Positions 5,175 through 61,562 of a DNA stretch of 64,000 nucleotides are shown piece after piece. Numbering within the stretch: position 1 is the stretch's first letter; the number at the start of each line of letters is the position of its first letter. The notes under the pieces are model-generated. The model saw nothing but the letters and a program-made list of their open reading frames with translations. It searched no databases and had not been told where the DNA came from. The position numbers and the translations under genes are program-made. Source of the stretch: Podarcis melisellensis (lineage: Eukaryota); assembly GCA_964234715.1 (NCBI GenBank), contig OZ174277.1. One strand, given 5' to 3'.

Positions 5175-5229
5175 AGTAGCCACCCAGAGTGGCTGGGGAA
5201 ACCCAGCCAGATGGGCAGGGTAGAAATAA

Positions 5230-5268
<39 letters not shown>
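5175..5268 (+). repeat. LINE/SINE 3' tail with (TTA)n; inverted relative at about 25754-25885
   Basis: CCCAGAGTGGCTGGGGAAACCCAGCCAGATGGGCAGGGTA followed by a TTA microsatellite. Confidence 0.65.
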
Positions 5269-7497
5269 GGTGGGTGCTTGTCTTCTTTCAACTCCAAAAG
5301 GCAGCTATTGTGTCTGACTATGTATGGAGAAAGAAACTAAAAGGAATGCTACAGAAAGCCAGGATTTGACACTTCACTGGTTATGTTAGGAGACACATCT
5401 ACTCAGGGCAGTCTTTAGCATATGCGCTACCCAGTGCCCCCAAAATTGGTTTAGCTGCCCCCAAATTAACTTTTATTGAGCTTTTTTTGGGAAGGGCAAA
5501 CTCAAAGTTATTGAGCTTTTTTTGGTGGGGAAATCACTCACCTGTAACAACAACACAGTGGAAAAAGCTGCTTTTGTTTCCTAACTCATCAAGAATGTTT
5601 GACGCTACGGGGTAGCAGAGCAACAGAGGAGGGAGGCGGGGACTTTCACTCCATTGCTTTTCACTGCCACCAATCGAGAGGGACTAGTATACAGCAGTAG
5701 GTATACATTTGGCACCCCCCAGAATTCAGCGCCCGAGTGCACCACACCCTGAGTAATGACGGCCCTGCATCTACTACCACATCTACTTCATGTGAGGTAC
5801 TCATATGAATACATTTCTAAGAAAGACAGGAAAGTCTAAATCATTGCATGTCTGCTACATGCCCACTTCTCCCCTGTCTGACCACTAGTTTGTGTTTGAG
5901 CTGAATACTATCTTAGAGAACAAAAACAAAGAAATAAGTTTGCATTTTCTCACCCAATCCTTTGCCCATTGCCCCATAATAGAGCCACTGCTGGTAAGAT
6001 GGCCACAATATACCAGGCACAGTCAATGTTAGGGCAAGCAACAGATAGATAGTCAAAAAGCCTGACATGGCATAAGACAGCTTCTTGTATTGCCTATGAT
6101 GTTACCATAGCAACATGGCACATGCATGTAATTGCAGTGGCATATGAAACAACAATCTCTTCAGATTTGGTCCGGCTGTACAACAGTAGCATGTTATCAT
6201 TGCACACCAAGAGAACGTATCATTTAAATTTTGAGCCGAGCGGCTTAATTGTTTTAATAAGTGATGGAGGTCTGGCTGACAACTGAATGATGAGTCACTG
6301 AATTAAAGCACACACATGGGTAAATGACTCATGTCACAACATTCAGCTGCAGTGCTTGGAGTGACAGGAACAGAAACAAAAAATCAATATTTTCTCCTTA
6401 AATTATGCAATTTTAAGCTGTTTGACTACTAGCTGTTAAATAACAAAAACAACTGGGTACATGGAAAATGCACTGAATAAAGCACAATATTTTTAAAAGG
6501 GGAGATTATTAATGCTTATAAAAGAAAAACACCTTGTTTTGTTTTGGCAGTCATGGTGATGCTCAGTTATTTACATAAAATATGCCCTGCTGGAATGGAT
6601 CAAAGGCCCAATCTAATCCAGCATTCTGAGTCCAGCAGTGACTGGTATTGTCTTTTAAACATATTAGGCTGGATTAAACTAAGTTGTTGTGCTAGCAGAA
6701 TCCAGTGCAATGAGTAATGAGTCCCACTGTAGGTCTCCCTTGCTCCCCCTCTTCCCAAATCAGCTTGGGAGGAGCAGGAGAACCCCTAGAAAAGTCGGAG
6801 GGGTGGGAAATCAGCCTGTCTGGCAAGCACAGGGGTGCCATCTCCTAGGGGCTGAACACACCCCCAAGTCCAAATCACAGAGCCGGGCACAATGTGGCCT
6901 CAATAGCCATGGCTCCTTCTCCTCTTCCTCCTCCTGCTATGGAGGGAAAAGAGGCTGGAAGCAGCCCCAGGCCGGTGGTGGCGGCAGCTGCAGGAGAAGC
7001 CACAGCCATTGAAGCTGTGCTGCCACTGTGCTGAGCTCTGCCCCAGCTCCTCCAACATCCTGACATCACATGCACTGTGCATCCCCCCCCCCCCCAATCT
7101 TATTCAGAAGCTGGCATGTGCGGGCAAGCAGAAATGCTTCTGCTGAGAGGGCAATAGATTTGGCACAAAATTTAATTACACCCATTGTAAGCCACCTCAT
7201 GTTGGCTACTGTGATGAAAACAGCAATGTTAAAAATTGCAGCCATAACCAAGTCAGAATGTTACCAGCCAGCACTGTAAAGCATAGATGAAAATTCAGGG
7301 CTTTCACTGCCTAGCTGCCTACCGTGATTTATTCAAATCAATCTCTCAGTTCAGCCTCAGCACTCACTCTTCAAACAGGAGTTTGATACTGAAAAATCTC
7401 TGCAGGGATTTGACTTTTTGGTTGGCATTTCCACACTACCCTGCTGAATCTCGGAACTCATTTTAAATGCATGTGTAAAACGATAAGCCCTGGTTAC

Positions 7498-9648: not shown

Positions 9649-10171
9649 CTTCTTGGGAGAAAAGCAATGACAAACCTAGACAGCATCTTAAAAAGCAGAG
9701 ACATCACCTTGCCAACAAAGGTCTGTATAGTAAAAGCAATGGTTTTCCCAGTAGTGATGTATGGAAGTGAAAGCTGGACCATAAAGAAGGCTGTCCGCCA
9801 AAGAATTGATGCTTTTGAATTATGGTGCTGGAGGAGACTCTTGAGAGTCCCATGGATTGCAAGAAGATCAAACCTATCCATTCTTAATCAGCCCTGAGTG
9901 CTCACTGGAAGGACAGATCGTGAAGCTGAGGCTCAAATACTTTGGCCACCTCATGAGAAGAGAAGACTCCGTGGAAAAGACCCTGACGTTGGGAAAGATG
10001 GAGGGCACAAGGAGAAGGGGACGACAGAGGATGAGATGGTTGGACAGTGTTCTTGAAGGTACCAGCATGAGTTTGACCAAACTGCGGGAGGCAGTGGAAG
10101 ACAGAAGTGCCTGGTGTGCTCTGGTCCATGGGGTCACGAAGAGTCGGACACGACTAAACAACAACAACAAC
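9649..10171 (+). mobile_element. BovB (RTE) LINE, 5'-truncated 3' fragment
   Basis: Peptides MTNLDSILKSRDITLPTKV..KAMVFPVVMYGSESWTIKKA and KLRLKYFGHLMRR..EKTL; frameshift near 9888; (CAA)n tail. Confidence 0.93.
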
Positions 10172-11084
10172 TTATAACTTAAGAACAGTTAGTTGGATAA
10201 CAGTGAGTGGTCTTAAGAACAGTCAGTCACAAGGAAGGTGGGCTGGCCAGCTGATCCCACACAGACCCAGGTGGAACACGCAGTCCATTGTACACAGAAA
10301 ATTAAAAAATAAATAAATAAAAAGCACAGGCAACAGCTTCTTCCAATAGTTTCAGCCACAAGGAAAATAGGGCTGGCTGCACTCAGCCCTGGATAGAACC
10401 ATCACCATCTAAAAAAAACCCAGTTTCATATCCTTTGACATGCATAACTATTTCAATCATTATAAAGGATGGTAAAAAAGTTATCATTTGAGGCCATAAT
10501 TCAAAACAAATGGCACTCCAAAGTAGAAGTTGGAAAAATAAGACCTAATAAATAAATTGTGACATCATGCTCGCAGTATCAGAGCAACAGTTTATCTTCA
10601 ATTGTATGTTCATATTTGTTCATTTCAGCACACTGTTTCTAATGTCTTGGTGTAAGAGAGGTAATAAGGTACACTAGCATACTAAAGAAGAAAAAAGCTA
10701 CTCCCAGAGAAATTTGCACTCCAGACTTATTGAATTCCTAAAACCACCTACTAGGAAGAATGTCCCATTGAAATTCATGGGATTGCATAGGATTGCCCTG
10801 AGACTTAAGCACCATAGTTTTAATGGACTTGAATATAATTGATTTTTTCTGGATTGACCTCTCTCTCTCTCTATTTAATAAAGTTTTGTGCTACCATTCA
10901 GTAAAAACTTTCTCAGGGTGGTATTAAAGGCATTTATCAGAAACAATTTGCTATTTGTAAGTTCTCATCACAATTCTGTTAAATGTAAGTTACATAATTA
11001 GCTAACTGGCATCAAAGAAATTGGTGTTTCAGTTATGACGCATTTCAATAAAAAAATAAGCATGTAGCAAAGTCACTCACTCAC

Positions 11085-16530: not shown

Positions 16531-17088
16531 CTATGAAACACAACAAGAAGAATATAAAATAATCAGTTGAGATCATAACCAACAGTACTGAGCTTCAAGC
16601 TGCCTCTACTCTATATATACATAAGATATAATAGCATCCCAAAGATTAAGCAGTGGCAACTGTATTATGAAAAAAATGCCTTCCTCAACAAGCAACAAAT
16701 TACTTGTGGCAGAGGCATATCAAACACTTTAAGTGTGGGTTTACTCAATCTCACAAATGAGGGATCAAGCTTTCCAGATGCTGCTAAACTACAACTCCCA
16801 TCAGCCCCAGCAAGCAAGGCCAATGGCTTCCCAACACCAGAATAAACAGTAGGAGTCTGATTTAAAGGGCAAAAGGAATATGGGGATGAAGGGTGCTGAA
16901 CTATACCCCAATCTGAGGTTTACCTCTGTTTAACTGGGATTTCACTTCTCTGTCAGCTTGAATCTAACTGGGAGGTGAAAGCAGCTGGAGCAAAAACCAC
17001 AATAAGCCTCACTACACACCTTTTTTGCTCTTAAAGCCAGACCTCCCTTGTTCCTTCTGCTTTATGCTTAATTAGCCAGACCTGTATT

Positions 17089-17222
17089 TCATGCTGGCCA
17101 CATGACCCGGAAAAACTGTCTGCGGACAAATGTCAGCTCCCTCGGCCAGTAAAGCAAGATGAGCGCCGCAACCCCAGAGTCGTTTGCAACTGGACTTAAC
17201 TGTCAGGGGTCCTTTACCTTTT
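17089..17222 (+). mobile_element. Sauria SINE 3' portion
   Basis: Closely similar to 61423-61562. Confidence 0.85.
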
Positions 17223-17964
17223 TATATTTTAAGAGCTGGCCAAACTAAAAATAGCATGGGAGATGCTCAAATGCATCTTTCAACATCTTTTTTCCTGCTA
17301 AAACCAGCTGTGACGCCCCCCACTTTGGATCACGGCCAATCTAATTCACACATACACCAGCTGCTATTAGCTGTGAAAGGAAAGTGTGCTGTGGAGAGTG
17401 AAACTCATACTGTTTCAATATATTTTACTGTCTGAAACGAATAGCAGTTCCCAGAGGGAGGATTTAGATTAGCAGTGTGACCCAAATCTAGCCCTACCCC
17501 CTCTCTGTGGCTGTTTTTGGAGAAGAATAAGATGTCGGGGGTTGTATTTCTGAATCTTTCACATCACATCTAATGTGGCCCTGAGAAGTAGCAGAAGTTC
17601 AAAGGGAAATTAAGATATGATCATGCAGCTTTATCACTGGACACAAGAAATATATTCTATACATTCTTTTAAAAAAACTACTTTCTCTGTATCAATGTAA
17701 TAGCTATGCTACCTCCAGGCTGGCATAGTTTAGGGATCCAATTCTGGGGTCTATCAGGAAAACAAAGGAACTTTGGATCCAGCGGATCCAGGGTTACCTT
17801 TTGTCTGCCTCTGCAGTACCCTGTTTCAGACCTTATTGCTGGCTGAAGCTGAGCTGTCAACACAGAACAGATGTGTACATTGGAGAGGCAGTGTCACCAT
17901 CTGTGAGCAAGAAGAAACCCCTTGTGGATTCAAGTCACAAGTCTGTTCTTACTGAGCGGTGCAA

Positions 17965-25666: not shown

Positions 25667-26491
25667 CTATAAAATAAAAGTATACAGATAACTTGTTGTT
25701 ATTTTTATCACCAAAATGTAACCATTTCCAATATCTTTACATATGCTGAGGATTTTATTTATACCCTGCTCATCTGGCTGAGTTGCCCCATCCACTCTGG
25801 GTGGCTTCCAACACATAAAACATAAAAAAGTCAAACATTAAAAACTTCCCGATACAGGGCTGCCTTCAGATGTCTTCTGAAAGTTGTTCTTAGATATAAC
25901 TTGTAGTTTGTTGCTTGTAAACCTCATAGAACATGATTTATATCTTATAAATACATGATTTATATCTTATAAATAATGCTGAAGGGACTATGTGTACTAT
26001 GTGCCTTCCTTAAAGCCTAAAATAGAAAGCTTAGTAGTTGTGTGGACTGGGAAGCTCTAGGAGATTAATGTAGGGGGAATGGTAGGGACGGTGGTGAAGA
26101 GAGCAAGCAGGGCTGCAGACCCTAGAACTCCAGTAACAACTGAGCCGCATGTAAGGTTTTTTTATTCTGACATTTGCCTTGAGGCTGTTTTCAATTGCAA
26201 ATTATGGCAAGCCATAAAAGCAGCCTCAAATTATTATGAAGAGGATGGAAGTTGATGGAACTTTGATTTGTTTGTTAATAACATGTGCCGTTCTACTACA
26301 GACTCTGGGCTTAGGAACAATTAATTGCATCCAAGACTTTCACCAAACACTCATGAGAAAGTTGTGTGTCAACATAGGAGAAGATCACAAATACTGCAGC
26401 TCTAACAGAGTTCTATCTTTGAGTACCTCTTTGTGAAGAAAATCACAAGAATCAATACTTGCATTACCTAGCTATTTGATACTGATCTTAC

Positions 26492-27193: not shown

Positions 27194-27377
27194 GGGACGC
27201 AGGTGGCGCTGTGGGTAAAACCTCAGTGCCTAGGACTTGCTGATCGTAAGGTTGGTGGTTCAAATCCCCGCGGTGGGGTGAGCTCGGCTCCCTCGGCCAA
27301 TAGAGCGAGATGAGCGCCGTAACCCCAGAGTCGGTCATGACTGGACCTAATGGTCAGGGGCCCCTTTACCTTTACCT
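27194..27377 (+). mobile_element. Sauria SINE, internally deleted
   Basis: GGGACGCAGGTGGCGCTGTGG head with B-box GGTTCAAATCC; (ACCTTT)n tail; a second tail fragment at about 27417-27441. Confidence 0.85.
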
Positions 27378-29619: not shown

Positions 29620-30280
29620 CTGCACAGATAAGGGGGGGGGGGAGATTTCCTTAAGTTTACACTCAGAAATGAAAGACTATATTCTACTGGTCAAGTTGAG
29701 AAACATAAACAGGGCAAAATTATCCTAGTAATTTATCACAAAGCAACTTAGCAATACTGTATATGTATACCTGTAACAGCCTAAATCCTCACTGATTGCT
29801 GTGAAGCTGCATGCACTACAAAGGCAAATGCTTTGAAGATAAATGGACTGAACTATTCTTTCTTCTCTTAAAAAGGTAAAGAAAGGGGAGAGATTGAATT
29901 TCTAACTCCCAGAAAGCAGCAGAGTAAGGCAGCCTTCTTTAACCTGGTGCCCTTCCGATATTTTGGAATACAACTCCAATCAGTCCCAGCCAGCAACACT
30001 GTACAAAACATCTGAAAGGTACCAGGTTGGGAAGGGGATGTTTGTCCAGCAACATAAGCACAGATGAACTATCAATACATCAGAAGAAAATTTTCAAAAG
30101 CAGAGAAGCATTTTTTAGAATATACACCAAGACAGCTGCTAAATAATGACTGAATCCAGGACGATTTGTCCATAAAGCGTGTTCTCCATTAACAGAGAGC
30201 ACGTGTTGCGGTTGGGGGAACAGGCCACCTTGCCATGACTAGGCAGTTTTGGAGAAACCTAAGCCTGCTAAAGGGTTAAG

Positions 30281-30339
30281 ATTGGGTACTGGGAATTGAT
30301 TGTAGCCAATTTTAGAGGAGGGGTCAGAGTATATAAATA
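30281..30339 (+). promoter_or_regulatory. Internal Pol II promoter of the YR element (CCAAT boxes plus TATA)
   Basis: ATTGG 30281-30285, CCAAT 30306-30310, TATATAAATA 30330-30339. Confidence 0.6.
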
Positions 30340-31230
30340 TAGAGGACAGACGCTGGGCCTTCCTCTTGGCCGTTTTGCATCGGATCAGGAGCTGCGCTGA
30401 TACGGTTGTATACTGCCTTGCTTTCGATTTCATTGGGCCTAGTTAAGTGGGCTGCCACCCCATCCTTTCCCTGCCTTAATTTTCCCCGTCCCCCTTTCCT
30501 TTTCCCCCTCATCTCTCCTGTGAGTTAATTTTGATTTTCTATTTAGTTTCTTATTATTTTGAAAGCAGGGAGAGCAACCAGTTTAGCCAAGGCTTGAGGG
30601 TGGGCTCCCCCCCCCCCCGCCTTGCGGGCCCTGCCTTCGGGCTGGGGCGCCGGGCTTTCGCCTTAATTACGGAGCGAACGCTGCCGGCTACCCGCGGCTG
30701 TTGAGGCTCGGCTTTGGATCTCTCCCTCTCCCGCTGATAGTGCGCTCGGGTCGGGGCCTAGTGCCGGGGAGACGACGGGGGTTTTGGCGAGTTCCTTGGG
30801 CCTACTGGTGCTCCCGTTGGGCCTAGGAGCCCTCCCCCCCTCCTAAGAAACCGGAGTTTTCTCCCTTACCTTTTTTTTTTTTTTTTTTTTTTGCGGCTTC
30901 CGGCCGCCGCGGCGGGACGGTGTTTTTTCCCGGCCTCTTCCCGTGCCGCGCCACGCCCGCCTCGCAGCGAGTGTCCTTCGGGCCTTTGCGGCTGCGGGGG
31001 CCCTTCTTTTAAATTCTCCGTCCGCAGCTGCCTTTCGGCGCGAGCGGCGGAGCGGCGGAGGAGTGCGGGCGGCCTGACTTGCTGCCGGAGCTCTCTTCCG
31101 GCGGCGGCAGCGTAGCCGGGACGGAGCGTCGGCGCTGGGGGACTGGGCCTCCTTGATTGCCCTGCTTCCCTCTCGCTTAACGTAGCGGGGCCGCGTCCCC
31201 GGGATCGGGTGCGGCTGCCCGCGTTTGCGC

Positions 31231-31450
31231 CCGCCATTTTGGTGCCTCCGTCGTCGTGCTACCGCGCCTGAAGTTTCCCTTGGTGGCTGTTGCCTTCTGG
31301 CTGCGCCACCTGGTGGCCAATTGCGGTTATTGCGGCCTGGGCCACCCGGGGGGCTCCCCCTGGTGGCGCAGTGAAGCACTGCGCCTTATTCCTGGAAGGC
31401 CTGTGGGGCTCTCCGGCGCCCCCTGCTGGTGGCACATAGGCAGTGCAGCC
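31231..31450 (-). promoter_or_regulatory. YY1 motif plus three co-oriented CTCF motifs in the element leader
   Basis: CCGCCATTTT 31231-31240. Minus strand: CCACCAGGTGGCGC (31303-31316), CCACCAGGGGGAGC (31353-31366), CCAGCAGGGGGCGC (31416-31429). Confidence 0.7.
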
Positions 31451-31590
31451 ACAATCGGCTTAATTGTTTCCTAGCTTCTACCGTTTAGTGCAAAGAAATT
31501 AAAAGAATAATAGAATAATTGATATTATTTAAACTGAATACAAATACGATTCTAAAATAAATAATTAAATATACTGTGTATGTTTCTAAT

Positions 31591-31617
31591 TAGATAGATA
31601 GATAGATAGATAGATAG
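31591..31617. repeat. (TAGA)n microsatellite inside the YR element leader
   Basis: Seen directly. Confidence 0.92.
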
Positions 31618-31747
31618 GCTAGACTGCCTGGAACTTCACTTGTGATTGTACTATTCCCTTTAATTATATTCAGCCCCTTGTCTGTGGCCACTAGTGACGC
31701 TTGGCTCTGATAATAATTGACTCTCACTTTGATTCCTAATAGCAGGT

Positions 31748-33277
31748 ATGGCCCCTAAAAAGAAGGTCGCTGCCCGTCCCGGCCCAGCCTCTGGTGCGAA
31801 ACGGCCCATTAGAGGTCCATCGCAGGCGCTTCGCTCTCCCACCCCAAACCAACCGGTGGGACGTGTGCAATCTTTGGTGGACAGTATGGCCGGCGATCCG
31901 GTGGCCTTGTCTCGCTTCGCAGCTGAGATGGATGGTTTTCTTCAACAGTGCTCTGCTCAGCCTTCAACGTCTGGAAGGCGCCCTCCCCCAGTGGTGGCAC
32001 CATTCCCAGCGTCGCCGTCATCTAGTGATGAGGAGAGAGATGGCTCATCATCTAGGGGTTTGATGACTGATTCCCAGTTAGCCCGTCCCCGTGCCTTACC
32101 TGCTGCTCGCGGACGTGCACGGAGACCGCGCCGTTCCTCTGGGAGGGCCGTGGGAAGAAGAGGCCCTTTGGCGTCATCCACCCGCCAAAGTCTCCTCACC
32201 CAACCTTCGGGCGAGGTTGCGTCAGGTTCCGGTATCTCACCTGTTGTTTCTCCTCACTCAGCTCCTGGTACATCTCACCTGAGTCCTGATTCTGAGTCTT
32301 CCATTGAGGACAGTTTGCCGGTTCCTGCCAAGAAGTCTTCAGGCGGTAAGCGTCACCGCAGGAGGTCTTCCCGGAAGCGTGCCAAGCGGAGGAGGGGCGA
32401 CTCATCTTCCTCCTATACTGGTACGTCATCCTCCAGTTCTGATGATGAGTCTAGCGCTTCCAGGGAACTCTATTGGGGTTTTGGTGAATCGGCTGCAGGT
32501 CTTCCTCGGTGGGCTTGGGAGCGTAGGGCCAACACGCATCGGGCAAGGTATGGTGCAGTTCAAGAATGCAAGGATGGTGTGCTGGTACCTGACGTTAAAG
32601 TCTCTACCAATTCCGCCAGAGACATTATCCCAGGTTCGCATTTGTCTACAAAACTGCGGTCCAGAGTTTTGAATGGTCGTTATGTGGACATTTTCAAACT
32701 GGCCCCTCCTTCCGAGGACCAGGAGAAGGGGACTTCAGCGAAGAAGCGCCAGGGTGCCCTAGTTACAGACAGGACTTTCGAACACTGGCTTGATTGTTTC
32801 CAAGTCTTTGCCGGAGTGGTCGTGGCGGCTTATCCTCGGAGATCCCTCCATCTGATAGTTTACTTATCTATTGTTCGCTCCGCTTTCACCAAAGCTGGTG
32901 AGAAGGCTGCGATAAAATATGATGAGAACTTCAGGCGCCGAGCTGCCAAGATTCCTTCAGCTCGATGGGATCGTAAGGATCTAGACGTGTGGACTACCTA
33001 TGTAGCTCCACTCATCGAAAAGAAGGTGTCTGAACCTCAGAAGCAGAGGGCTTTGCCGTTTAGGCCTAGCCGTCGCCTGCCATGCTGGGAGTTTAATAAG
33101 GGTTCCTGTCAGCGCCAAGGGTGCAAGTATGCCCACATGTGTGAAAAATGCAATGGTTCGCATCCGGCTTCCTCGTGTTATGGGAGTAGGCGGCCTTTTC
33201 GTGGAGGAAAAGGGGGTTCTCAGCAACCCCCCAAGCAAAACACCCCTCTCCCTTCCACATCAGGAACAGGAAAATAG
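31748..33277 (+). CDS. Gag-like ORF1 of the YR retrotransposon (509 aa)
   Basis: C-terminal C-x7-C-x4-C-x3-H plus C-x2-C-x3-H-x4-C zinc fingers; Ser/Arg-rich N-half; sits upstream of and overlaps RT. Confidence 0.88.
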   Translation: MAPKKKVAARPGPASGAKRPIRGPSQALRSPTPNQPVGRVQSLVDSMAGDPVALSRFAAEMDGFLQQCSAQPSTSGRRPPPVVAPFPASPSSSDEERDGSSSRGLMTDSQLARPRALPAARGRARRPRRSSGRAVGRRGPLASSTRQSLLTQPSGEVASGSGISPVVSPHSAPGTSHLSPDSESSIEDSLPVPAKKSSGGKRHRRRSSRKRAKRRRGDSSSSYTGTSSSSSDDESSASRELYWGFGESAAGLPRWAWERRANTHRARYGAVQECKDGVLVPDVKVSTNSARDIIPGSHLSTKLRSRVLNGRYVDIFKLAPPSEDQEKGTSAKKRQGALVTDRTFEHWLDCFQVFAGVVVAAYPRRSLHLIVYLSIVRSAFTKAGEKAAIKYDENFRRRAAKIPSARWDRKDLDVWTTYVAPLIEKKVSEPQKQRALPFRPSRRLPCWEFNKGSCQRQGCKYAHMCEKCNGSHPASSCYGSRRPFRGGKGGSQQPPKQNTPLPSTSGTGK

Positions 33278-34883
33278 GGTATTGACCTCCTTGGCTCATT
33301 CCCCTGTTCGTTTGCCGGCCCTACAATTCTGGTTGCAGTCATATCCTAATAGGGTCGCTGCAGGTTACTTGAGTGATGGTTTTTCGGTTGGTTTTCGGAT
33401 TCCGGTAGCCATGCCTCCCGTGGCACGGAATCCTTCTAACCAAAAGTCGGTTCGCGAGCTGCCCGAGGTTGCTCGCAGGAAGATTGCGAAGGAGTTGGCC
33501 ATGCATCGCATGGCTGGTCCTTTTAGTGCCCCTCCCTTCCTCAACTTCCATGTCTCCCCATTGGGTATAGTGCCGAAGAAGGCGCCAGGTGAATTTCGTT
33601 TAATTCATAATTTGTCAAACCCCAGAGGTACCTCAGTCAATGATGTTATTCCTCCGGAGCTCTGCTCCGTGAGGTATGCATCTCTTGATCAAGCAATCAA
33701 GATGATTAGGAAGTTTGGCCTGGGTGCCCTGTTAGCGAAATGTGATATTGAGTCGGCGTTTCGCCTCCTCCCGGTTCATCCGGATGACTTTTGGCTGCTG
33801 GGTTTTCAGTTTGAGGGCAAATTTTACTTTGATAAAGCCATGCCTATGGGCTGTTCTATTGCCTGTGCTGCGTTTGAATCCTTTAGCACCTTTTTGGAGT
33901 GGGCCCTCAAATTTAAAACTGGATTGGGTGGGGTCACTCATTATTTGGATGATTTTTTACTGGCCTCCGCTCATGACACTGGCGATTGTTCGGTGTTGCT
34001 GCACGCCTTTGCTGAACTCACGCAAGAGCTGGGGGTCCCGCTTGCAGCAGAAAAGACGGAGGGCCCATCAACCCAGCTTACTTACTTGGGTATCCTGCTG
34101 GATACAGTTTCCCAGACTTCTAGCTTGCCAATGGACAAGCTGGTAGCCTTGAAGAAAGTCATAGAGGAGCTACTCCCTTTAGAAAAGGTATCTCTTAAAC
34201 AAATCCAGTCATTACTAGGGCACCTAAACTTCGCGTGCAGGGTTGTGGCGCCTGGGCGCCCCTTCTGTTCGCGCCTGGCTCGGCTTACGGTGGGGTTGAG
34301 GGCCCCACACCATCGCGTGCGCCTTTCCAAAGGGGTGAGGACTGATCTTTCCATATGGTTGGAATTCTTGGAGGAATTCAATGGGGTGTCCTTATGGCAA
34401 GACACGCTGAACTTGCGCAATGATTTTCAGGTTCAATCGGACGCTGCAGGTTCCCTGGGCTTCGGCCTTTACTGGAAAGGGCGTTGGTGCGCCGAGCGTT
34501 GGCCGCCTGCGTGGCAGGGGGGAGAGATCACACGGGACCTAACATTTCTCGAGTTTTTTCCCATTGCAGTGGCGGTGCATTTGTGGGTCGAGGAATTCAG
34601 GAACCGTCGTGTCTGCTTCTGGACCGATAACCAGGCGGTGGTGAATGTGCTGGCAAAGCTGTCTTCACGCTCACCCAGGGTGTCGGCCTTATTGCGGGTT
34701 TTCGTGTTGCATTGTTTACGCTATAATATAGTGTTTTCTGCACGTTTTATTCCTGGGGTGTCTAATGAAATTGCTGATGCTCTGTCCCGTTTTCAGATGG
34801 AGCGGTTCAGACTTCTGGTTCCAGAGGCACGGATACGTCCGGAATATTTCCCGGATCATCTCTGGAACCTTGGCAGCAATTAG
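33129..34883 (+). CDS. Reverse transcriptase-RNase H (584 aa ORF)
   Basis: SPLGIVPKK..FRLIHNLS, KCDIESAFR, MPMG, YLDD; RNase H SDAAG / LEFFPI / WTDN / NEIADALSR; no internal stops. Confidence 0.96.
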   Translation: MPTCVKNAMVRIRLPRVMGVGGLFVEEKGVLSNPPSKTPLSLPHQEQENRVLTSLAHSPVRLPALQFWLQSYPNRVAAGYLSDGFSVGFRIPVAMPPVARNPSNQKSVRELPEVARRKIAKELAMHRMAGPFSAPPFLNFHVSPLGIVPKKAPGEFRLIHNLSNPRGTSVNDVIPPELCSVRYASLDQAIKMIRKFGLGALLAKCDIESAFRLLPVHPDDFWLLGFQFEGKFYFDKAMPMGCSIACAAFESFSTFLEWALKFKTGLGGVTHYLDDFLLASAHDTGDCSVLLHAFAELTQELGVPLAAEKTEGPSTQLTYLGILLDTVSQTSSLPMDKLVALKKVIEELLPLEKVSLKQIQSLLGHLNFACRVVAPGRPFCSRLARLTVGLRAPHHRVRLSKGVRTDLSIWLEFLEEFNGVSLWQDTLNLRNDFQVQSDAAGSLGFGLYWKGRWCAERWPPAWQGGEITRDLTFLEFFPIAVAVHLWVEEFRNRRVCFWTDNQAVVNVLAKLSSRSPRVSALLRVFVLHCLRYNIVFSARFIPGVSNEIADALSRFQMERFRLLVPEARIRPEYFPDHLWNLGSN

Positions 34884-34885
34884 TT

Positions 34886-35770
34886 TTGCAGGGAGTAGCG
34901 GCATCTGTTTCCCCTTCTACTCTTAGATCTTATACGAAAGCTTGGTCTGATTTTTTGACGTTTAATTCCCGGCCGGCCAGCGATTTAAGAGGCATCCCGC
35001 CCACCTCTTCAGAGGTGTTAAGTTATTTGGCGCATTTATTTCAGCTGGGGCGTGCTGCAAAAACTATTAAAATACATGCAGCTGCTATAACGTTTTTCTC
35101 TAGAACAGTTTTCGACAAAGACCCCTGTGCGAAGTTTATGGTGCGCAAGGCCCTAGAAGGCTGGGGGAGGCTTCGCCCTTCCCAGCCAGTTTCACGGCGC
35201 CCCATCTCTTTTGACTTGTTGAGTAAGATGCGCAAGAAATTGCGGGAGGTGTGCTGGTCGGCGTACGAGGCTCGCCTTTTCTCAGCTGCCTTTTCTATAG
35301 CCTTTTTCGGAGCCTTGAGAGTGGGTGAGCTGGTATTGGAAGATCTCAGGGATGGCCGTTCCAGGGGCCTTTTGCTACGGGACGTGCAGTTGTTCCCTGC
35401 AGAGCTAAGAATCACAGTTAGGAACTCAAAGACGGATCAGGAGGGTAGGGGTGCTCTCATTCATCTCCCTGCTACGGAAACAGCTGGCCCTTGCCCTGTA
35501 AAGGATGTCGGCAAGTATTTGGCAGTGCGTGCCTCAGGTGATGGGCCTCTGCTTCGGCATGAAAATGGGTTGCCCCTAACGAGACGCCAGTTTGCTCACG
35601 TGATGCGAAAGGCGATTCGGGCCTGTGGTGGCTCGACTGATGGTTTTGCCCCGCATTCTTTTAGGATTGGGGCTGCGACGACGGCTGCCCACTGGGGCTT
35701 GTCGGCCACTAGAATAAAGGATATGGGTCGCTGGAAGTCGAACGCGTTTCGAGGTTATGTCCGTCAATAA
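34886..35770 (+). CDS. Tyrosine recombinase (frame open from 34778; no ATG ahead of the conserved region)
   Basis: Catalytic residues present: GALRVGEL (R), NSKTDQ (K), HSFRIGAAT (HxxR), GRWKSNAFRGY (W, Y). Confidence 0.94.
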   Translation: MQGVAASVSPSTLRSYTKAWSDFLTFNSRPASDLRGIPPTSSEVLSYLAHLFQLGRAAKTIKIHAAAITFFSRTVFDKDPCAKFMVRKALEGWGRLRPSQPVSRRPISFDLLSKMRKKLREVCWSAYEARLFSAAFSIAFFGALRVGELVLEDLRDGRSRGLLLRDVQLFPAELRITVRNSKTDQEGRGALIHLPATETAGPCPVKDVGKYLAVRASGDGPLLRHENGLPLTRRQFAHVMRKAIRACGGSTDGFAPHSFRIGAATTAAHWGLSATRIKDMGRWKSNAFRGYVRQ

Positions 35771-36371
35771 TTTTGGTTACTTACAGTGTCGTTTTTTGTA
35801 TATCTTAGGTCTGGAGGCTGTCCGCATCTGGCTGGTGGGGCACAGCATCGTCCATTGGGCTGGTGTTGCAGCACAACAGTCCGGACTGGGTCCAGATCTT
35901 GGCTTCCCTCCACATGTTCAGCTATCGTGGCTGTCCAGACGGGGAATGCGTTGGCCGGAGTTCCTGCCACGGATCCGTAATCAGTTGCGTTTGGAAGGGC
36001 CCCCAGCGGCTGTGGTGGTACAGCTGGGTGAGAACGACCTGGTATCCACGGACTGTCTTTCACTTCGTGCTGCAATTTTGGGTGACCTGGAGACGTTGCG
36101 GGCATGGGTGCCGTCAGCAAAAATATTTTGGTCTAAGCTGTTGCAACGTCGCATTTGGTTGGGCAGTCGTCGCCCAGCAGCCACAGAAAGGGCCAGGAAA
36201 CGCGTCAATGCAGAGGTGGCAAAGAAAGTTGTTGAGCTGGGTGGTGACGTGATTTCCCATCCAGGAATTAAGTTCCAGGCGGCATCACTCTTTAGGGCCG
36301 ATGGTGTGCATCTTTCAGCCTCAGGGAATGAGGTTTGGCTGGGTGCAGTGGTGGCCAAGCTGAGGGCTTGA
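35757..36371 (+). CDS. SGNH/GDSL-type hydrolase
   Basis: Block I LVGHS, block II RRG, block III LGEND, block V DGVH. Confidence 0.9.
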   Translation: MSVNNFGYLQCRFLYILGLEAVRIWLVGHSIVHWAGVAAQQSGLGPDLGFPPHVQLSWLSRRGMRWPEFLPRIRNQLRLEGPPAAVVVQLGENDLVSTDCLSLRAAILGDLETLRAWVPSAKIFWSKLLQRRIWLGSRRPAATERARKRVNAEVAKKVVELGGDVISHPGIKFQAASLFRADGVHLSASGNEVWLGAVVAKLRA

Positions 36372-36379
36372 TTGGGATG

Positions 36380-36719
36380 GTGAGTGGTTTGGCGGGGAGC
36401 TGTGGGCTCCATGGCGGTTAGGCATTGGTTAAAGTGGTGCTTGGAGGGGTAAGTGCCTACCCCTCCAAATGATGCGGAGGGAATTCCGTTAAAGGAATCC
36501 AGGGGCTTGCCATTCTTTTGTCCTTGTTCATGGCGTTGGACTTGGGCCGTGCAAGCCCCACAGGAACATGAGGGTGAGAAGTGTTAGACTGTTGCCCGGC
36601 TTCACTTTCTCACCCAATACTTGTTTCCCCACACTGGCTTCCGTTGGTGTCCGGTATGCCAGCTCTGTCCCTGAGGGCATGGACAGATAGTCATAACCAA
36701 TGCCTACGCAACCACTCAC
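36380..36719 (+). ncRNA. Predicted multi-stem structured RNA in the 3' UTR of the YR element
   Basis: Perfect 10-bp and 13-bp long-range stems enclosing six internal stems or hairpins (see findings). Confidence 0.65.
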
Positions 36720-36731
36720 ATTTTGTACTTG

Positions 36732-36737
36732 AATAAA
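36732..36737 (+). terminator. Poly(A) signal of the YR element
   Basis: AATAAA 13 nt after the structured domain, followed by a GT/T-rich tract at about 36775-36800. Confidence 0.6.
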
Positions 36738-38120
36738 GTTGTGGCCAAAATTATGCCAAAAACCCAAACAAAAATTGATGTGTGAAGTGTGAATTTTTTG
36801 GGGGTGGCATTGTGGGACTCAACACGCAACCACTTGAAACAGGACCCCCAAGCCAACATATTGCTTGCATATTGAAGATTTCATACATCTTCAAAAAGAA
36901 GAAATAAATTATTTGAAGACTGTGAATTGAAATGAAGGTTGTGAAGCTGTGAGCCTTTTAAACCCAATTCACAAAAATGAAAACATAACCATTATGCTTC
37001 ACCTCTAGAGGGCTCTCTAGGTTAGCCCTGAAGCATGCTGGCAACAAATGCTTCTCTGTTTTACCTAATCTCTAGTAAAGAAGTTACAGGATACAGGGCT
37101 GTCAATGCACATCCTTGAAACTATCTTATATACCATATTTTAAAATAATTTGGGTTTTTTTTGTTTTTAAGAGACAAGCCCAACTGAAGTTCTGAAAGCA
37201 TTGTGCTCCAGGAATCCAATCTGTGCTAACTCTGATAAGAAGGGAGCTGAACAACATTTCCCAGATCAATATGACAACCTGAATTTAGTTAACTGGCTTT
37301 TGCAATTCCCTAGTGTTTGGTGCAGGTTTTGGCTCAAAAAGTATTAAAATACATTTTTAAATGTGTATTTTGAGAGAAAGCAAGTTAAGAAACGCGGATT
37401 TTGACAGAAAAGGCCTATTTAATACAGCCCCCCTAAAAAATACAGGTTAATGTGGAGATGCAATAAATGTAATTAAAAGTGAACATAAGAAAAAGTGACA
37501 CAGAACAGAAATAAACAACCATCCATCCCTAATGACGGTAGGTTACTGCTATGTGATGTTTCTGTAGTTATATGATAACACAATGTGAAATGTTAATACA
37601 CATGCTCTTTTGAGAGAGAGAAGCACTCACGTACTATGTGCATGTTTTGTCAAAGGTCATGAAGCATTAAAAGAGATTAGGTATTATTAAGAGGGCTTCA
37701 GAGAACACAGAGCTTTAGCATTTGGGAGTGTGACACAGGATTGGTTCACATGTAAACCAAACCATGGTTTAGCATAGTTTTCCCCAAACTGAGGCTCTTT
37801 AAATGTATTGGACTACAATCCTATCACCCCCCCCCCCGTAAGCAAAGTCAATGGTCAGAGATTATGTCAGCTATAGTCCAAAATTATTGGAGGGAAATAC
37901 TAGTTTAATGTGATGCAATATCAGAAATTCCTTTTTACCAACTGCTTATTTCTCTGGCAAGTTTTCATTGCTCTTCTCCCCCTATAATTTTGCATTGTAA
38001 GACACCTTGGAACTAGCTATTTATAGAATTTTTACTTCATTTATAACTAAATAACTGAATGAATTAATAAATATTTTCCTATTGAATACAGCATTCATTA
38101 TTCACAATCATATTATTTAC

Positions 38121-39507: not shown

Positions 39508-40164
39508 CTAAATAAAACACAGATAAATTAACATTCATCTCTAAATAAAATGTATATATTAAAATGTCCAGTGGAGTAACTCTACTCCATTAGCAGTTAC
39601 CATAAAAAGAAGTCCTACTGGAAAATAGGGAATATCCAAGGGAAATTAATTTAAGTTCAGAAATCAAAAACACTTCCTTTCACTTTGAGGAGGTGAGAGT
39701 TACTAATGAAGCTTCTAATCCTGGTACCTGTTCTATAAAAGAAGGTAGACTTTTTTAAGAGCAGAGGCTCTGCTCACCAGAGGCTGGGCTAGCTGTTCCA
39801 AGGAAGTGGGAGGCCTGTTTTAGGCTTAGTCTGGGTTCATTGTTTATTGGAGCTACATTCAAGCTTTCCTTGTCTCACTGCCAACCTAGGTGCTACTAGG
39901 AGCTATCCAGGGTACTACTTATCTAACAACCTTGCCGGTTTGCTTCATCCATATGTTTTGGGACAACTCCCATCATCCCTAGCTAACAGGACCAGTGGTC
40001 AGAGATGATGGGAACTGTAGTCCCAAAACATCTGGAGGGCTGAGTTTGGGGATGACTGATCTAGGCCTACATTTTCCTTTGTCTGGCTGTGCCTTACTGG
40101 GCCTGGCTTCCTGAATGGGAGCTAATAATATGTGACAATGAGTCCCTGGAATTTGGGTCTAGCA

Positions 40165-40300
40165 CAGGCTTCCTCAAACTCGGCCCTCCAGATGTTTTTG
40201 GCCTACAACTCCCATGATCCCTAGCTAGCAGGACCAGTGGTCAGGGATGATGGGAATTGTAGTCTCAAAACATCCGGAGGGCCGAGTTTGAGGAAGCCTG
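40165..40300. mobile_element. hAT-type MITE, 136 bp
   Basis: Long TIR CAGGCTTCCTCAAACTCGGCCCTCC; perfect 8-bp TSD GTCTAGCA. Confidence 0.9.
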
Positions 40301-41025
40301 GTCTAGCATATGCTACCACTTTGGGCAAGAACCTTGTCTCCTGGCTGAAACCACTGCCTGGGAGAAAACAAGGGCATCGTGTTGATTACCATCCATTGCA
40401 TTTTTGAAGCATAAATTGTAAGCCATCATTTCTGGTAGTTATTTTTTGTGATTGTCTTTTTTGTTTTTAAATCTGTTTTTAATGTTGTATTTAATTTTTT
40501 TGCAACCTGCCCTGGGACCTTCGGGGAAATACACATTAGAAATTAAATCATCATCATCATCTCCAGTTCCTTATGTAGCCCACCCCCCTCGCACATGCAT
40601 GCTGCCTCTCATGCTGCTCTAGGGAATCTCCAAATCCTCTGGTTCAGTTTTTCGGGGGGTGGAAAAGAATCTGAGAAAAGTGCCTCTCCTTCCCCTAACA
40701 TGAATGCAAGTCTGATTCCAACACATTGTCTTTTGGACATATAGGAAGTTATATATGTCTAATGGGATTTTTGAAGTTCAGGTTTTTTTAAATTACAGCA
40801 TTACCATGAACTTCTATGAATACAAATCACTTGTGGCACATTTCCCCTCCTTTCCTCCCTTTCTTCCTCTATTGATAAACACACCCCTTTAATACTTTGT
40901 AGTGTTAAATTGTTGTTGAATTAACCTTTATTGCACAAAATATCATTATTTATTAAATTTTATGTAACGCTTGATTGTAGGTTTCCAAATATAATTCACT
41001 GAAGCCCACTGGTTCATATACTTAC

Positions 41026-47521: not shown

Positions 47522-47781
47522 CTAAAACAAATACAAATATGCATATAAGCAGATCAATATTCTATTCAGATATTAATTCTTTCTCAACAGTCACTCATAT
47601 CCTTCCAAATTCTTCATATTTCATATATAATTTCCACTGCAAACAAGAATATTCACAAATCAATTCACAGTACAGCTGCAGTCAGAAGGGTATAGGTCTC
47701 CTATCTTTTCTTCGCAGAAACAAAATATAGCATCAGATAGGAATGAAGCACTAAGCAATTCAAGCTTTCAAAGGTTTGAAG

Positions 47782-47912
47782 CAGGCTTCCTCAACCTTGG
47801 CCCTCCAGATGTTCTGAGACTACCCATGATCCCTGACCACTGGTCCTGCTAGCTAGGGATCATGGGAGTTGTAGGCCAAAAACATCTAGAGGGCCGAGGT
47901 TGAGGAAGCCTG
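47782..47912. mobile_element. hAT-type MITE, same family as 40165, opposite orientation
   Basis: TIR CAGGCTTCCTCAACCT; perfect 8-bp TSD GTTTGAAG. Confidence 0.9.
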
Positions 47913-49940
47913 GTTTGAAGAAATTAGAACAAAAACCATGGCCCTTTTTATTGGCAACACAATTTGCAGCAACTTAGTGAACAAATTCAGTTGACAGATT
48001 CCAAAAGAAAACTTATGTTAGCCAGCTAGTCTTAAGGTAACTGAAAAATGAAAATTTATCTTGAGCCATAAACTTTCATGACAATAAAGACATGCTTTCA
48101 TATTAAATGTCCATCTATAAATCTATTTAAAATTGCCATTCTACATCTTCTCAATAAAATTTTAACTTATGAACACAAAGAGAGCCTGCTGGTTCAGGTC
48201 AATAGCACATCTAATCCATCATCTTGTTCTCAGTGGCCATTAAGAAGCACACTGGAATTCAGAGGAATACTGCCCTTTCACAATGGAGGTGGAATTCTGC
48301 TGCTATAACATCTACGGTACGTTTCTTTAATTTCTTCATTATATTTGTTCCAAAGCTATGCAACTGAAACTGCTAGACACAAAGTTATAGAATTATTGGT
48401 CAAACAGACCAATGCAATGCAAATGTACTTTGTTAATTGTTGTGTTAGCTTTCCAACTGCCAACACAATTCATGATCTACAATGCAGTGAGCTCTATAAC
48501 ATATGCCCTCCTAAAACCCCGAATCTCCCCCCCCCCAACTTTCCTAGCATTTCCTTGTTTGGGTGGCCTTGGGTTTTGAGTAACCAGGTCTATAGCTCCC
48601 ATGCTGCCACAGACATTGGCTGAAGAGGGAAATAATTCCATCAAGCCCCCTCCTGAGAGGATTCTAACTGCCATCAAGTCAGTTACGGCAGCTTCCTTAG
48701 GGAAGAACGGTGGCAGAAGCTGCTCTGTCCTGCACATTGTTCAGCAGTTCTGCTCCTGGACCGGAGGAGAGGAGTGCTTCTGGTGAATAAAGCCCTGGCC
48801 ATAACTGCCTCTGACACCTGTGAGTAGATGCTGTTCTTCTATACAAACAGAATCTTATAACAGTTATAAGAACTGTAACGTTATAAATTGAGCTCCAGTT
48901 TGCTTCCCCACTCTACCTCGCTCCCCGACCACTCCTTTTCCCTCATGTGTCATCTTTTTAGATCATAAACCTAAGGGCAGGGACCATCTTAAAGCTGATT
49001 TTTTAAAAAGTCATTTTGGCAGCCTTTTTGGCTGAAGGGTGCAATATAAATCCTTCCTTAACAAAACAGAGCCTTAGAACCTACAACTGCAAAATGAGTT
49101 CCAAAAATGGAATAGGGCTTCCCCACTTCATTCTTCCTACTACAACTTCATGTCTACTTCAAAAAGCTTCATGTGAGAGTTGAAGGTGTTCAGTGGGGTA
49201 CAGGAGATTGCAGCAGAGGGATGGGAAAATCAAGGACACCCTGGGCCTCTGTGGGATTGAAATGAAAGTGTTTGTTCATTAATGTAAATATAATCCAGTT
49301 GCATTTACATGTGACATTAAACCATGGCTTATTGCTATGTGAATGAGCCTGAACAAGTCTGAGTAAAAGGTCTAAACTACTGCACTGCATTCTCTCCTTC
49401 TCCTGTACAGCTGGAAAGAGCCAAGTTTAACTTTCAAAGAATCCCAGTTTAGCATTATGTTCAAACCAGAGTTCCTGTTTAAAACAAACTCTGGTTAAGT
49501 TTCAGAAGAAAACAATTTCAAATCATGGGTTATGAAGCTCAGTTCTTAAAACTAACCAGTTTGTTTTAAACCAATGTTCTTGGTTTAACAAAAAGCTGGG
49601 ATTCTTTAAAAGTAGGACTAAACTCTGCCAAAGTCCTCCTCCCAGATGTGCAAGCGGAGTAAAGCAGGGAGGATGTAAGCTAATGCTGCAGCCAGACATT
49701 TCAGGCTCATCCATGTAGCATTAAACTATGGCTTAGTATATTATGTGTTAACATACCCACTGACTTTGGCTGCAGCTGAGGATCTTCCTTTGTTTACTAT
49801 ATTTTATAGGGTTCAAAAACCACCCCTATCAATTCATTCATTCTTAACAAACAAGCATCCACCCTATGTATTAAATTCTAGCTTTGTTGCCCATCGCTCT
49901 ATTTTGATCTCAAAACAGACACAAAGCTTAGAAAACATAC

Positions 49941-50080: not shown

Positions 50081-51467
50081 CTGCAAAAGAGAAAGGAAAT
50101 TAAGTGTGATTAGGTGGCAATGAAAAATTGTGTCAGCATGAAAATCTGTGTGACCTTCCAAGAACTTGACCCTCATTATAGATAATTTTAATAAATAGGG
50201 AGAGCAAATATGAAAGTCCAGTAGATTCTGTCTGCACAATGGAAAGCAGCACAGCTAGTACTTTCGAAATTGTTTGCAGGGTACTGATGAGCTATTCCTC
50301 AGTTGTCAGCTCTTGTGGTTTTCACCAATGCAAAACTATCCTCTCAGAACTAAAAGGATTAGTTGGAACGTTCTCACCTTATAAAAGCATAATGATAAAA
50401 GCAGTTTGTCATCTATCATTATTACTCATATGAAGTGGAAATATGGGGTGGGACAAAGTGTGCTACTCAGATGCCACTGAACAACCATTGAGGGAGAATG
50501 TTATTGGAATGTTCTGGTACTTTGGGAATGGCTTCTTATGCTTCCATGGCAATATATTAGAATCCACTTTTCTGGAACTTTCCAAAGCATCTGGAACAAG
50601 GGAGAATTATTTCCTCCTTGTTTACCTATGCTGTATATATAGGACATCTCATATATGGGATTGAACTCATTTTCAATACAGGATTGTATCAACCTGAATC
50701 TACATTCACCTAAGTGTGGTTTCTCCTTAACAAATGTTACTATAATTTATATGCTTTAATGTTGGGTTTTGAATAGCTTGTGGGAACAGCTTAAATTTTA
50801 AAATGTATAATTTCTTGCTGAAGAGATAGAAATTCGTTTCAGCCTGTGCTATCTCTTTACATTCATGCAACATATAGTGGTCAGTATTTTGGTTCAAAAT
50901 TTGTCATTCATTTATTAAAATTGTTGGCCATGCTGGCTGAGGCTGATGGGAGTTGTAATCCAATAACACCTGGAGAGTTGTAGCTTCCCCAACCCAAGGC
51001 TATAGGAAGCACTGGATTTTCCTTTCTGCAGACCATGTCAGATCTGAGAGAGACATGGAGAGATCCAACCCTATATGGCCCCTCCCTGTCATTGCAGAAG
51101 TGTCCACAGCCTCTGTGTGGAAAGGAATGAAAGGGGTGTGTGCTGGGGGAAGGCACTGATTCAAAGGATTCCTAGCCTGTCCAATTCTCTGGCACACCCA
51201 CCCCTACAAACCAAGAAGAAAACCATGCCAGTTTTGGAGCTGTTGCTACTAATGAAAGGAAAACTGTGAAATAAAATAATAAACTGGAGAAGGACATAAG
51301 AGTGCAAGAACCTCACTTCCACCCTTCCAACGAAAGATCATTAAGCCTTTGGATGAGGCCGCTCAAAGGCTTTCAGCCTTCAACCACCCCTCCCCACAAC
51401 AGGACTGCAACCTATGTAAAATAAATGATGTGCATAATATATACCAAAAAGATTGATGCATCCTTAC

Positions 51468-60339: not shown

Positions 60340-60960
60340 AGAAGCGGCGAGTTGTGCGCAACCCGCAAGGAACGGGGGCCGCCTGAGAAGCGGAGGGTAT
60401 GGAGCCTTACTCTTTAGCGGGGAAGGGCGTCTGGAGAACGTTGTTGCTCTTCACCGGCTCCTTCTTTTTGCTTAACTTCGACATGCCAGGCTCCCTTAGA
60501 CGAGCTTCAGCGCCGCCGCAATAGCTCGCCTCCCTCAGGCGTCGGTCGCGTCGGCGTCCATTTCGTTGCTAAGAGACGCCGACTCAGCCGCAGAGATAGA
60601 AACGGGGTTAGAGTGATACGCGTCCCGTACTTCCGGCACAATAAAAAGCACGGAAAGTTTGAGTCGCCCACACCAGCCTCGCAATCATCAGTGCCCACTT
60701 CCGGTCCGGAACCTTCCCTCCAAAGCACTGTAGATAGGGAATGTTCTTTACCATAGAGCTGCCGCCGGGTAGACGGACGTCTCCCTGAGTCCATAGAGAT
60801 AAAAACGCGCCTCTTTGCTTCCTGTTTTTATTTATCTTTTGTATTTTTACGCTGTTGGGCGAAAAGCCCGACGAGTGAACAAAGCCGGACTTCCGCTGCC
60901 TGTTCATATCTTGATAACATGTTGAATATCTTCATAAATACAAAGAGTGAGAAGGGGACG
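60340..60960 (-). promoter_or_regulatory. ADGB CpG-island promoter with RFX X-box and ETS motifs
   Basis: CpG-rich around exon 1; X-box-like GTTGCTAAGAGAC 60565-60577; ACTTCCGG motifs near 60630 and 60697. Confidence 0.75.
60411..60484 (-). CDS. ADGB: ADGB coding exon 1 (MSKLSKKKEPVKSNNVLQTPFPAK)
   Basis: ATG in a CpG island; 74 nt ending GA|GTAAG; phase fits exon 2. Confidence 0.88.
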
Positions 60961-61233: not shown

Positions 61234-61562
61234 GGACGCGATCGGAAGGTCGGCGGTTCATATCCCCGCAACGGAGTGAGCTCCCGTTGCTTGGTCCCTG
61301 CTCCTGTCAACCTAGCAGTTCCAAAGCACATCCAAGTGCATGTAGATAAGTAGGTACCTTCTCTGGTGGGAAGGTAAACGGCATTTCCATGTGCTGCTCT
61401 GGCTTCACCAGAAGCGGCTTAGTCATGCTGGCCACATGACCCAGAAAAACTGTCTATGGAAGCAGACAAACGCCGGCTCCCTCGGCCTGTAAAGCGAGAT
61501 GAGCGCCGCAACCCCAGAGTCGTTTGCGACTGGACTTAACTGTCAGGGGTACCTTTACGTTT
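61234..61562 (+). mobile_element. Sauria SINE with a deletion in the head and a TSD
   Basis: GGGACGCG start; body GCGAGATGAGCGCCGCAACCCCAGAGTCG; ACCTTT tail; TACAAGGG repeated at 61227-61234 and 61563-61570. Confidence 0.85.

Follow-up and report, generated by a model that had tools for sequence, protein, structure and literature searches.

Three clustered full-length CTCF motifs in the leader of a tyrosine-recombinase retrotransposon within an intron of lizard ADGB

A retrotransposon lying antisense to ADGB (androglobin), within an intron of this gene in a lacertid lizard, carries three CTCF motifs in the same orientation in its leader. Each has the traits of an extended CTCF site, namely, a strong core, as judged with a reconstructed matrix and a reconstructed pattern, and an upstream motif at a linker of 5 to 6 bp. 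In the 64-kb stretch of DNA analyzed here (the window), the CTCF motifs are far beyond chance, and it is very likely that the sites (C, B, and A; Table 1) bind CTCF when they are accessible. We infer that the array is the retrotransposon's own cis-regulatory cassette, kept by selection for CTCF binding. The array is probably a selected feature of the element family, and the role that we tentatively place first, with confidence somewhat short of even, is that of an internal border or barrier.

Table 1. Positions of the CTCF array, of the retrotransposon that carries it, and of other features (positions in the window, except for the last row)
Feature	Position	Strand	Remarks
TATA box (TATATAA)	30330..30336	+	sole match in 30100-31760; putative element promoter
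Predicted leader intron, 1226 nt	30520..31745	+	donor GTGAGT at 30520; branch-like TTGAC; pyrimidine tract; acceptor TAGCAG
CpG island	30600..31460	.	GC 0.675; CpG observed/expected 0.89-1.05, versus 0.20 in host flanks
YY1 motif	31230..31241	-	CAAAATGGCGGG; CCGCCATTTT on the plus strand at 31231-31240; modest significance
CTCF site C	31301..31335	-	core 31301-31319, 23.1 bits; 6-bp linker; upstream motif 31326-31335, 6/10
CTCF site B	31351..31384	-	core 31351-31369, 17.7 bits; 5-bp linker; upstream motif 31375-31384, 6/10
CTCF site A	31414..31448	-	core 31414-31432, 21.6 bits; 6-bp linker; upstream motif 31439-31448, 8/10
AT-rich tract, GC 0.22	31460..31620	.	(TAGA)6.8 microsatellite at 31591-31617; abuts array
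Tyrosine-recombinase retrotransposon, Ngaro-type gene order	30170..36800	+	ends approximate, from CpG/GC content and poly(A) signal
gag-like ORF, 509 aa	31748..33277	+	CCCH and CCHC-like zinc knuckles near C terminus
Reverse transcriptase/RNase H ORF	33006..34883	+	625 aa stop to stop; YLDD
Tyrosine recombinase ORF, 330 aa	34778..35770	+	R, HxxR, and Y motifs
SGNH/GDSL hydrolase ORF, 217 aa	35718..36371	+	motifs present
3' noncoding region	36372..36760	+	strong RNA folding, z -4.0; AATAAA at 36732
Host ADGB intron with element	29621..38115	-	between coding exons 38169-38116 and 29620-29453
Short hairpin-forming MITE-like elements, inverted ends	39945-40306, 47779-47918, 50924-50977, 63468-63604, 16770-16826, 29941-30028
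Split repeats of relative L004	1-883, 5173-5282, 5303-6185, 7444-7553		1.26 kb unique between second A and B

For scoring the cores, counts were reconstructed after JASPAR MA0139.1, and the column sums of this matrix were self-consistent (908 to 913). A preliminary description of this DNA had listed three near-consensus CTCF cores in the same orientation, starting 50 and 63 bp apart. All three were present, on the minus strand, and with the reconstructed matrix they ranked first to third in the window against both 41% and 50% GC backgrounds, with P values of 3.7e-9 for site C, 6.0e-7 for site B, and 2.1e-8 for site A. The three footprints do not overlap and cover 148 bp in total, about one nucleosome. 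A matrix-free IUPAC pattern, also reconstructed, gave five matches in the window; three of these were the array, and both exact matches were among the three. Dinucleotide shuffles served as controls at a threshold of at least 17.5 bits, at which three matches are observed. Shuffling the 220 bp (31231-31450) 20,000 times and the CpG island 10,000 times never gave at least two such matches, and shuffling the element 2,000 times did so once. Moreover, no column-permuted matrix out of 5,000 equalled the observed best or third-best score. Three matches were obtained in 0 of 32,000 composition-matched shuffles over the three regions. At a 66% GC background, the middle site (B) fell to 13.0 bits, a P value of 1.3e-5, and rank 9 in the window with the reconstructed matrix.

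CTCF zinc fingers 9 to 11 are reported to bind an upstream motif resembling CTGCAGTTCC, typically across a 5-bp linker and at 13 to 15% of sites, and this 10-mer, as written in the same source, was our reference (PMC12885311). An upstream-motif-like sequence on the minus strand had been assigned to each core, and one was indeed found at each (Table 1); for every array site, the observed linker was the best of 15 tried, and the joint chance of the upstream matches at these linkers is about 1e-5 to 4e-5. These linkers are also the ones that give the 34- and 35-bp lengths of the JASPAR extended CTCF motifs (supplement table of PMC9793704). GCAnT, a pattern picked post hoc, was in register at 3 of 3 array sites and at 0 of the 10 other window matches of at least 10 bits, one of which, on the plus strand at 2181-2199 (15.2 bits), fits the upstream 10-mer at 7 of 10 positions. 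Since the zinc fingers of vertebrate CTCF are reported to be 99.5% identical in a set that includes two lizards (PMC2515639, section 7), motifs derived from the human protein should apply in the lizard. A chance origin of the array in a GC-rich leader, in favor of which stand the 67% GC of the island, the P value of site B at that background, and the reconstructed nature of the matrices, is effectively refuted by the shuffles, the permuted matrices, and the upstream motif, which is an independent signal; the YY1 site is not so refuted.

The likeness among the three units bears on how the array came about. Pairwise identity was 22 of 24 at the high-information core positions, a figure that is partly so by construction, and 12 of 12 at the upstream GCAnT. 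Elsewhere, against a background expectation of 0.29, the linkers agreed at 3 of 15, the downstream sequence at 14 of 45, the sequence further upstream at 10 of 30, and the remaining upstream-motif positions at 5 of 18. Because the units are alike only at motif positions, the comparison suggests selection for CTCF binding and argues against a recent duplication. Recent tandem duplication was considered as the source of the three sites and was ruled out, the spacers and flanks being at background identity; an old duplication followed by selection is possible. In a separate observation, the upstream motifs of sites C and B, at 31326-31335 and 31375-31384 on the minus strand, have CG in place of the consensus TG. 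None of the array cores has a CpG at the position that we take to be methylation sensitive. A methylated C could mimic T in the upstream motifs, and the predicted CTCF binding might thus tolerate methylation.

The evidence for the YY1 motif was of a different order. The motif, previously described as perfect, is present; CCGCCATTTT occurs once in the window, and the site is the best match there to a reconstructed YY1 matrix. Its statistics are modest and its support for an insulator is weak, since 6 of 100 shuffles of the window also contained one such sequence and, with the reconstructed matrix, scores as high arose in 28 of 3,000 shuffles of the island, 66 of 3,000 of the leader, and 119 of 1,000 of the element. 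The site is only modestly above chance and may be called plausible, not compelling. In human L1, YY1 has been tied to the choice of start site and possibly to later methylation (PMC10879037). Because of this role and of the modest statistics, YY1 provides no evidence of anti-silencing, and it was not counted toward an insulator, its significance against shuffles being weak.

The array lies inside the element and belongs to the retrotransposon rather than to ADGB, in agreement with the preliminary description. Four overlapping plus-strand ORFs are all free of stops and have intact catalytic motifs. Searches of Pfam returned RVT_1 (E value of 6e-12) and, below the curated cutoffs, Phage_integrase (2e-4) and, for the ORF that follows the recombinase, Lipase_GDSL_2 (5e-5). 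No methyltransferase domain was matched in Pfam after the RT/RNase H up to an E value of 0.1, a search that a divergent domain could escape. The overlapping ORFs for gag, RT/RNase H, and tyrosine recombinase are those of the DIRS order, and the SGNH hydrolase after the recombinase (amphibian type), together with the missing methyltransferase domain, is that of Ngaro-like elements. The split direct repeats of Ngaro-like elements (A1...B1-A2-B2) are absent, as are the inverted terminal repeats with an internal complementary region and the methyltransferase domain of the DIRS-like superfamily. Indeed, a repeat finder, self-blastn, and local alignment detected no split direct or inverted terminal repeats in the element above the shuffle level, and its 5' and 3' parts were most alike in a 20-bp inverted match (30097/37043) that lies beyond the likely ends. 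Because the split direct repeats are absent, we refer to the element as Ngaro type in its layout rather than as a proven Ngaro member, and the copy is probably incomplete.

The closest RTs were those of Podarcis muralis relatives (84 to 90% identical) and Zootoca, and the RT fell in a lacertid clade with support of 100/100 in a 25-row tree that holds neither a labelled Ngaro or DIRS-like reference nor an outgroup. Across most of the element, the CpG observed/expected ratio was 0.5 to 1.05, versus 0.20 in the host flanks. The four open ORFs with their catalytic motifs and the undepleted CpG give the copy a young look and suggest that it is young and intact; because it looks young, the motifs most likely arrived with the element. 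As a further feature of this copy, the RNA of the 3' noncoding region is predicted to form a long, multibranched fold closed by long-range helices (36380/36719 and 36419/36706), and 0 of 100 shuffles were as stable. No Rfam match was found for 36372-36760, and the fold is a candidate replication or packaging signal.

Within the element, the 1388-nt leader (30360-31747) contains a single ATG, compared with a shuffle mean of 14.9 (0 of 3,000 shuffles), and its minus strand has six. The GTRAG donor at 30520 is the only one in the leader, and the acceptor ends 2 nt before the gag ATG. Transcription would start near 30360, and a short first exon followed by a 1226-nt intron is predicted to occupy the leader. 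A spliced leader is not described for Ngaro-like elements in the accessible text of PMC9210276. The predicted intron contains the CpG island, the YY1 motif, the CTCF array, and the AT-rich tract, with the array about 300 bp from the acceptor and about 780 bp from the donor. The array lies at the downstream edge of the CpG island, 300 to 450 bp 5' of gag, and is situated between the element promoter and the coding body, with its motifs pointing toward the promoter.

The occurrence of the array beyond this copy was examined in relatives. None of 120 RT relatives aligned with the leader. A protein search with a minus-strand leader frame gave no match among 365 candidates, and a plus-strand frame spanning all of the motifs gave one weak match (E value of 6e-4) to a single-member record. 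A scan of prokaryotic genome contigs returned 14 loci (L001 to L014) with a related RT (37 to 50% RT identity). These are Ngaro-type RTs in bacterial metagenome-assembled genomes, most of them also with gag and recombinase, and their likely source is the DNA of animal hosts that was included in symbiont assemblies. The 14 loci are too distant to serve as a test of the lizard family. Across them, CTCF matches of at least 12 bits numbered three, all within coding regions. Because no CTCF site was found before gag in any of the eight distant relatives with sequence there (best, 8.1 bits; five had more than 400 nt), the cassette is, as far as these sequences go, not ancestral to the whole clade. 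Several of the 14 loci have tandem repeats of about 60 to 110 bp before gag or past the last ORF. One relative, L004 (45% RT identity), has split repeats of 883 and 110 bp, and its repeated 883-bp A segment stops some 55 bp short of the gag ATG. L004 might consist of one complete unit and one deleted unit in tandem; in that case, a repeat-free A-ORFs-B monomer, such as the copy in the window, may be a natural form.

In the internal-border reading, each 34- or 35-bp site would be able to engage CTCF zinc fingers 3 to 7 and 9 to 11. At an accessible copy, CTCF (with cohesin) would occupy the block at the island edge, and the occupied block would act as a border between the promoter with its CpG island and the gag-pol-recombinase body, limiting how far H3K9 or DNA methylation extends out of the coding body into the promoter. 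Because the motifs point toward the promoter, the block would also anchor the promoter to chromatin on the 5' side. CTCF sites with an upstream motif are reported to be strong enhancer blockers in two reporter studies, with stronger blocking of an enhancer located downstream of the motif, and a screen cited there needed two to four tandem sites (PMC11417384, PMC12885311). The preliminary description had proposed that the element carries its own insulator against silencing. Strong core-plus-upstream sites do lie within the element, but the array is internal and, because it is between the promoter and the coding region, it cannot shield the element from the upstream flank or from host heterochromatin.

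Several points count against a border. In mouse, H3K9 methylation is reported often to mask CTCF sites in transposons (PMC12487818). In KSHV, in HCMV, and at the BLV 5' long terminal repeat, viral CTCF is described as restraining transcription rather than protecting it (for BLV, PMC8989512). In addition, the RNA folding of the array region is somewhat stronger than that of shuffled sequence. A boundary in host chromatin, ADGB included, would be a by-product at unsilenced copies, and the further proposal, that a boundary could come with every insertion, may apply to such copies only, because of the frequent H3K9 masking of transposon CTCF sites. The border, activator, Pol II/splicing, and RNA-structure roles are mutually compatible.

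An unlikely alternative as the main role is that the clustered CTCF sites bring about germline activation of the BORIS type. Clustered CTCF motifs that are co-bound by BORIS are reported elsewhere to become start sites and to be able to drive dormant transposons (PMC10832218). The array resembles such 2xCTS regions, which have at least two CTCF motifs per peak-sized region and are GC rich and intronic; it, too, clusters at least two CTCF motifs, although 2xCTS regions are defined in mammals by CTCF-BORIS co-binding (PMC10832218). BORIS exists in reptiles (PMC2515639), a retrotransposon needs germline expression, and the position of the cluster in a CpG island shortly 5' of gag would suit such a role. 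However, the TATA box, the ATG-poor leader, and the donor-acceptor pair already imply a start near 30360, upstream motifs are a hallmark of stable, insulating sites, and the BORIS of the bearded dragon is reported to be broadly expressed and not testis restricted (PMC2515639).

We give a similarly low probability to control of Pol II and splicing, in which the array would govern how much RNA the element makes and how this RNA is divided between a spliced form, which makes protein, and an unspliced form, which is copied; the array may thereby dampen the element. The latency control region of KSHV has a like layout, with three CTCF sites within about 140 bp of the first intron (127,522-127,658; PMC3158054, PMC4517120), compared with 148 bp here, and loss of these sites was reported to raise latency transcripts and to alter Pol II and splicing. 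Keeping an intron would also require unspliced RNA or a second leader copy. Against this stand the predicted nature of the intron, the distances of the array from both splice sites, and the limits of the parallel, which is one of layout, an analogy and not homology: KSHV, a herpesvirus, is an episome for which CTCF/cohesin binding and looping have been demonstrated, whereas the lizard feature is an integrated element with a predicted intron and motifs.

A structural signal in RNA or single-stranded DNA, acting in packaging or replication and with the CTCF likeness as a by-product of GC-rich palindromes, is improbable. RNA folding in the array region gave z scores of -1.57, -2.64, and -2.77 in three segments, and the excess persisted with the motifs held fixed (z = -3.7, mononucleotide shuffles); moreover, a perfect 8-bp inverted repeat (31365-31383) overlaps CTCF site B and would form a hairpin across it. 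Nevertheless, the first of these scores is small, 7 of 14 leader segments had z below -2.5 in the same mononucleotide test, so that the array is not special, and both strands fold alike. Rfam gave no match at the array and three weak matches elsewhere, all far below the gathering score. Hairpins also leave unexplained the three same-strand matches with correctly spaced upstream motifs. RNA structure could be a second, overlapping constraint.

The host gene was mapped from 34 exons found with a Podarcis protein and a first coding exon at 60484. ADGB is on the minus strand, with its ATG at 60484 and its last exon at 301-101, and the exons that flank the element are the 14th and 15th of 35 mapped coding exons. 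The array had been placed within ADGB between its promoter and X-boxes on the 3' side, and this held: with a reconstructed consensus, X-box-like sites at 6101, 14519, and 24309 lie on the ADGB 3' side of the element and none lies 5' at that stringency. The scan gave four matches in the window, a number reached in 0 of 100 shuffles, and these predicted motifs are candidate RFX sites. In humans, FOXJ1 together with RFX2 is reported to activate ADGB by way of a 3' enhancer, and the human ADGB enhancers that passed reporter tests occupy the last intron and the region downstream of the gene (PMC7949040).

It is very improbable that the array matters mainly to the host, as a boundary retained in ADGB that separates the promoter from 3' enhancers. 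The position of the array would fit, its orientation places the 3' X-boxes on the side reported for strongest blocking, the human gene relies on 3' enhancers with RFX2, and the plus-strand CTCF-like site at 2181, with its upstream match, is convergent with the array. That site, however, falls within an ADGB coding exon (2129-2227), and because the copy looks young and intact, the integrity of its motifs is uninformative on host selection. Blocking of its own enhancers would more likely be neutral or harmful to the gene, and antisense transcripts that start in the element could affect ADGB just as directly. Elsewhere in the gene, an exact X-box (6101-6114) lies between two YY1-like matches (5995 and 6111) in a 3' ADGB intron, and this segment (5995-6122) is a candidate host enhancer. 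Several of the MITE-like hairpin elements in the window carry ACTACAAnTCCCA, which we take to be a ZNF143-type motif, and other fragments presumably represent the 3' end of a Bov-B/RTE LINE and squamate SINEs (9845-10188; 17089-17224, 27273-27375, 61423-61564; 5178-5230, 25754-25806).

Among known elements, Xenopus DIRS-53_XT and DIRS-54_XT are alike in having four overlapping ORFs, ordered as gag, RT/RNase H, tyrosine recombinase, and then SGNH hydrolase, and in showing no methyltransferase domain (PMC9210276). The lizard copy differs from Xenopus Ngaro-like elements in being without split direct repeats, as are some copies and one consensus reported there, and the accessible text of the same source reports no CTCF array for these elements and describes the DIRS order as absent from mammals and birds (PMC9210276). 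Rodent B2 SINEs are likewise mobile elements that carry CTCF motifs, the 33/34-mer form among them, and are able to give rise to boundaries (PMC3368268); the lizard element differs in its three clustered full-length motifs and in being autonomous and of another order. The BLV provirus is also an integrated retroelement with three CTCF motifs, at internal transitions of histone marks and with looping to host DNA, but its sites are in three distinct regions rather than in one 148-bp block (PMC8989512). In the accessible literature, outside which most subscription papers fall, we found no report of CTCF sites in DIRS/Ngaro or reptile elements, and the passages that name Ngaro and CTCF in the accessible part of a frog-genome preprint are unrelated. 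The spread of CTCF sites by transposons in mammals and the use of CTCF by viruses are known; the array is a clean motif feature, from which we infer function.

Three full-length sites that are alike only at contact positions suggest that the element was selected to recruit CTCF and that the array is not an accidental motif. A standing question, whether the CTCF sites that transposons carry benefit the transposons themselves, is thereby made testable. Likewise, a young insertion that may be polymorphic and that sits mid-gene, with the promoter on one side and candidate 3' RFX sites on the other, is a natural experiment on the effect of a new boundary on the host gene. If the lizard family is built like L004, complete copies would carry the array twice, with CTCF blocks in the same direction bracketing the coding region, and an array doubled in this way would make the element a self-contained mobile domain. 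It is conceivable, though we consider it rather doubtful, that an active lacertid Ngaro-type family has evolved, as one of its regular components, a nucleosome-sized CTCF insulator of three full-length sites that is bound in vivo and has been carried to many loci, and that this family would be a present source of new loop anchors in lizards.
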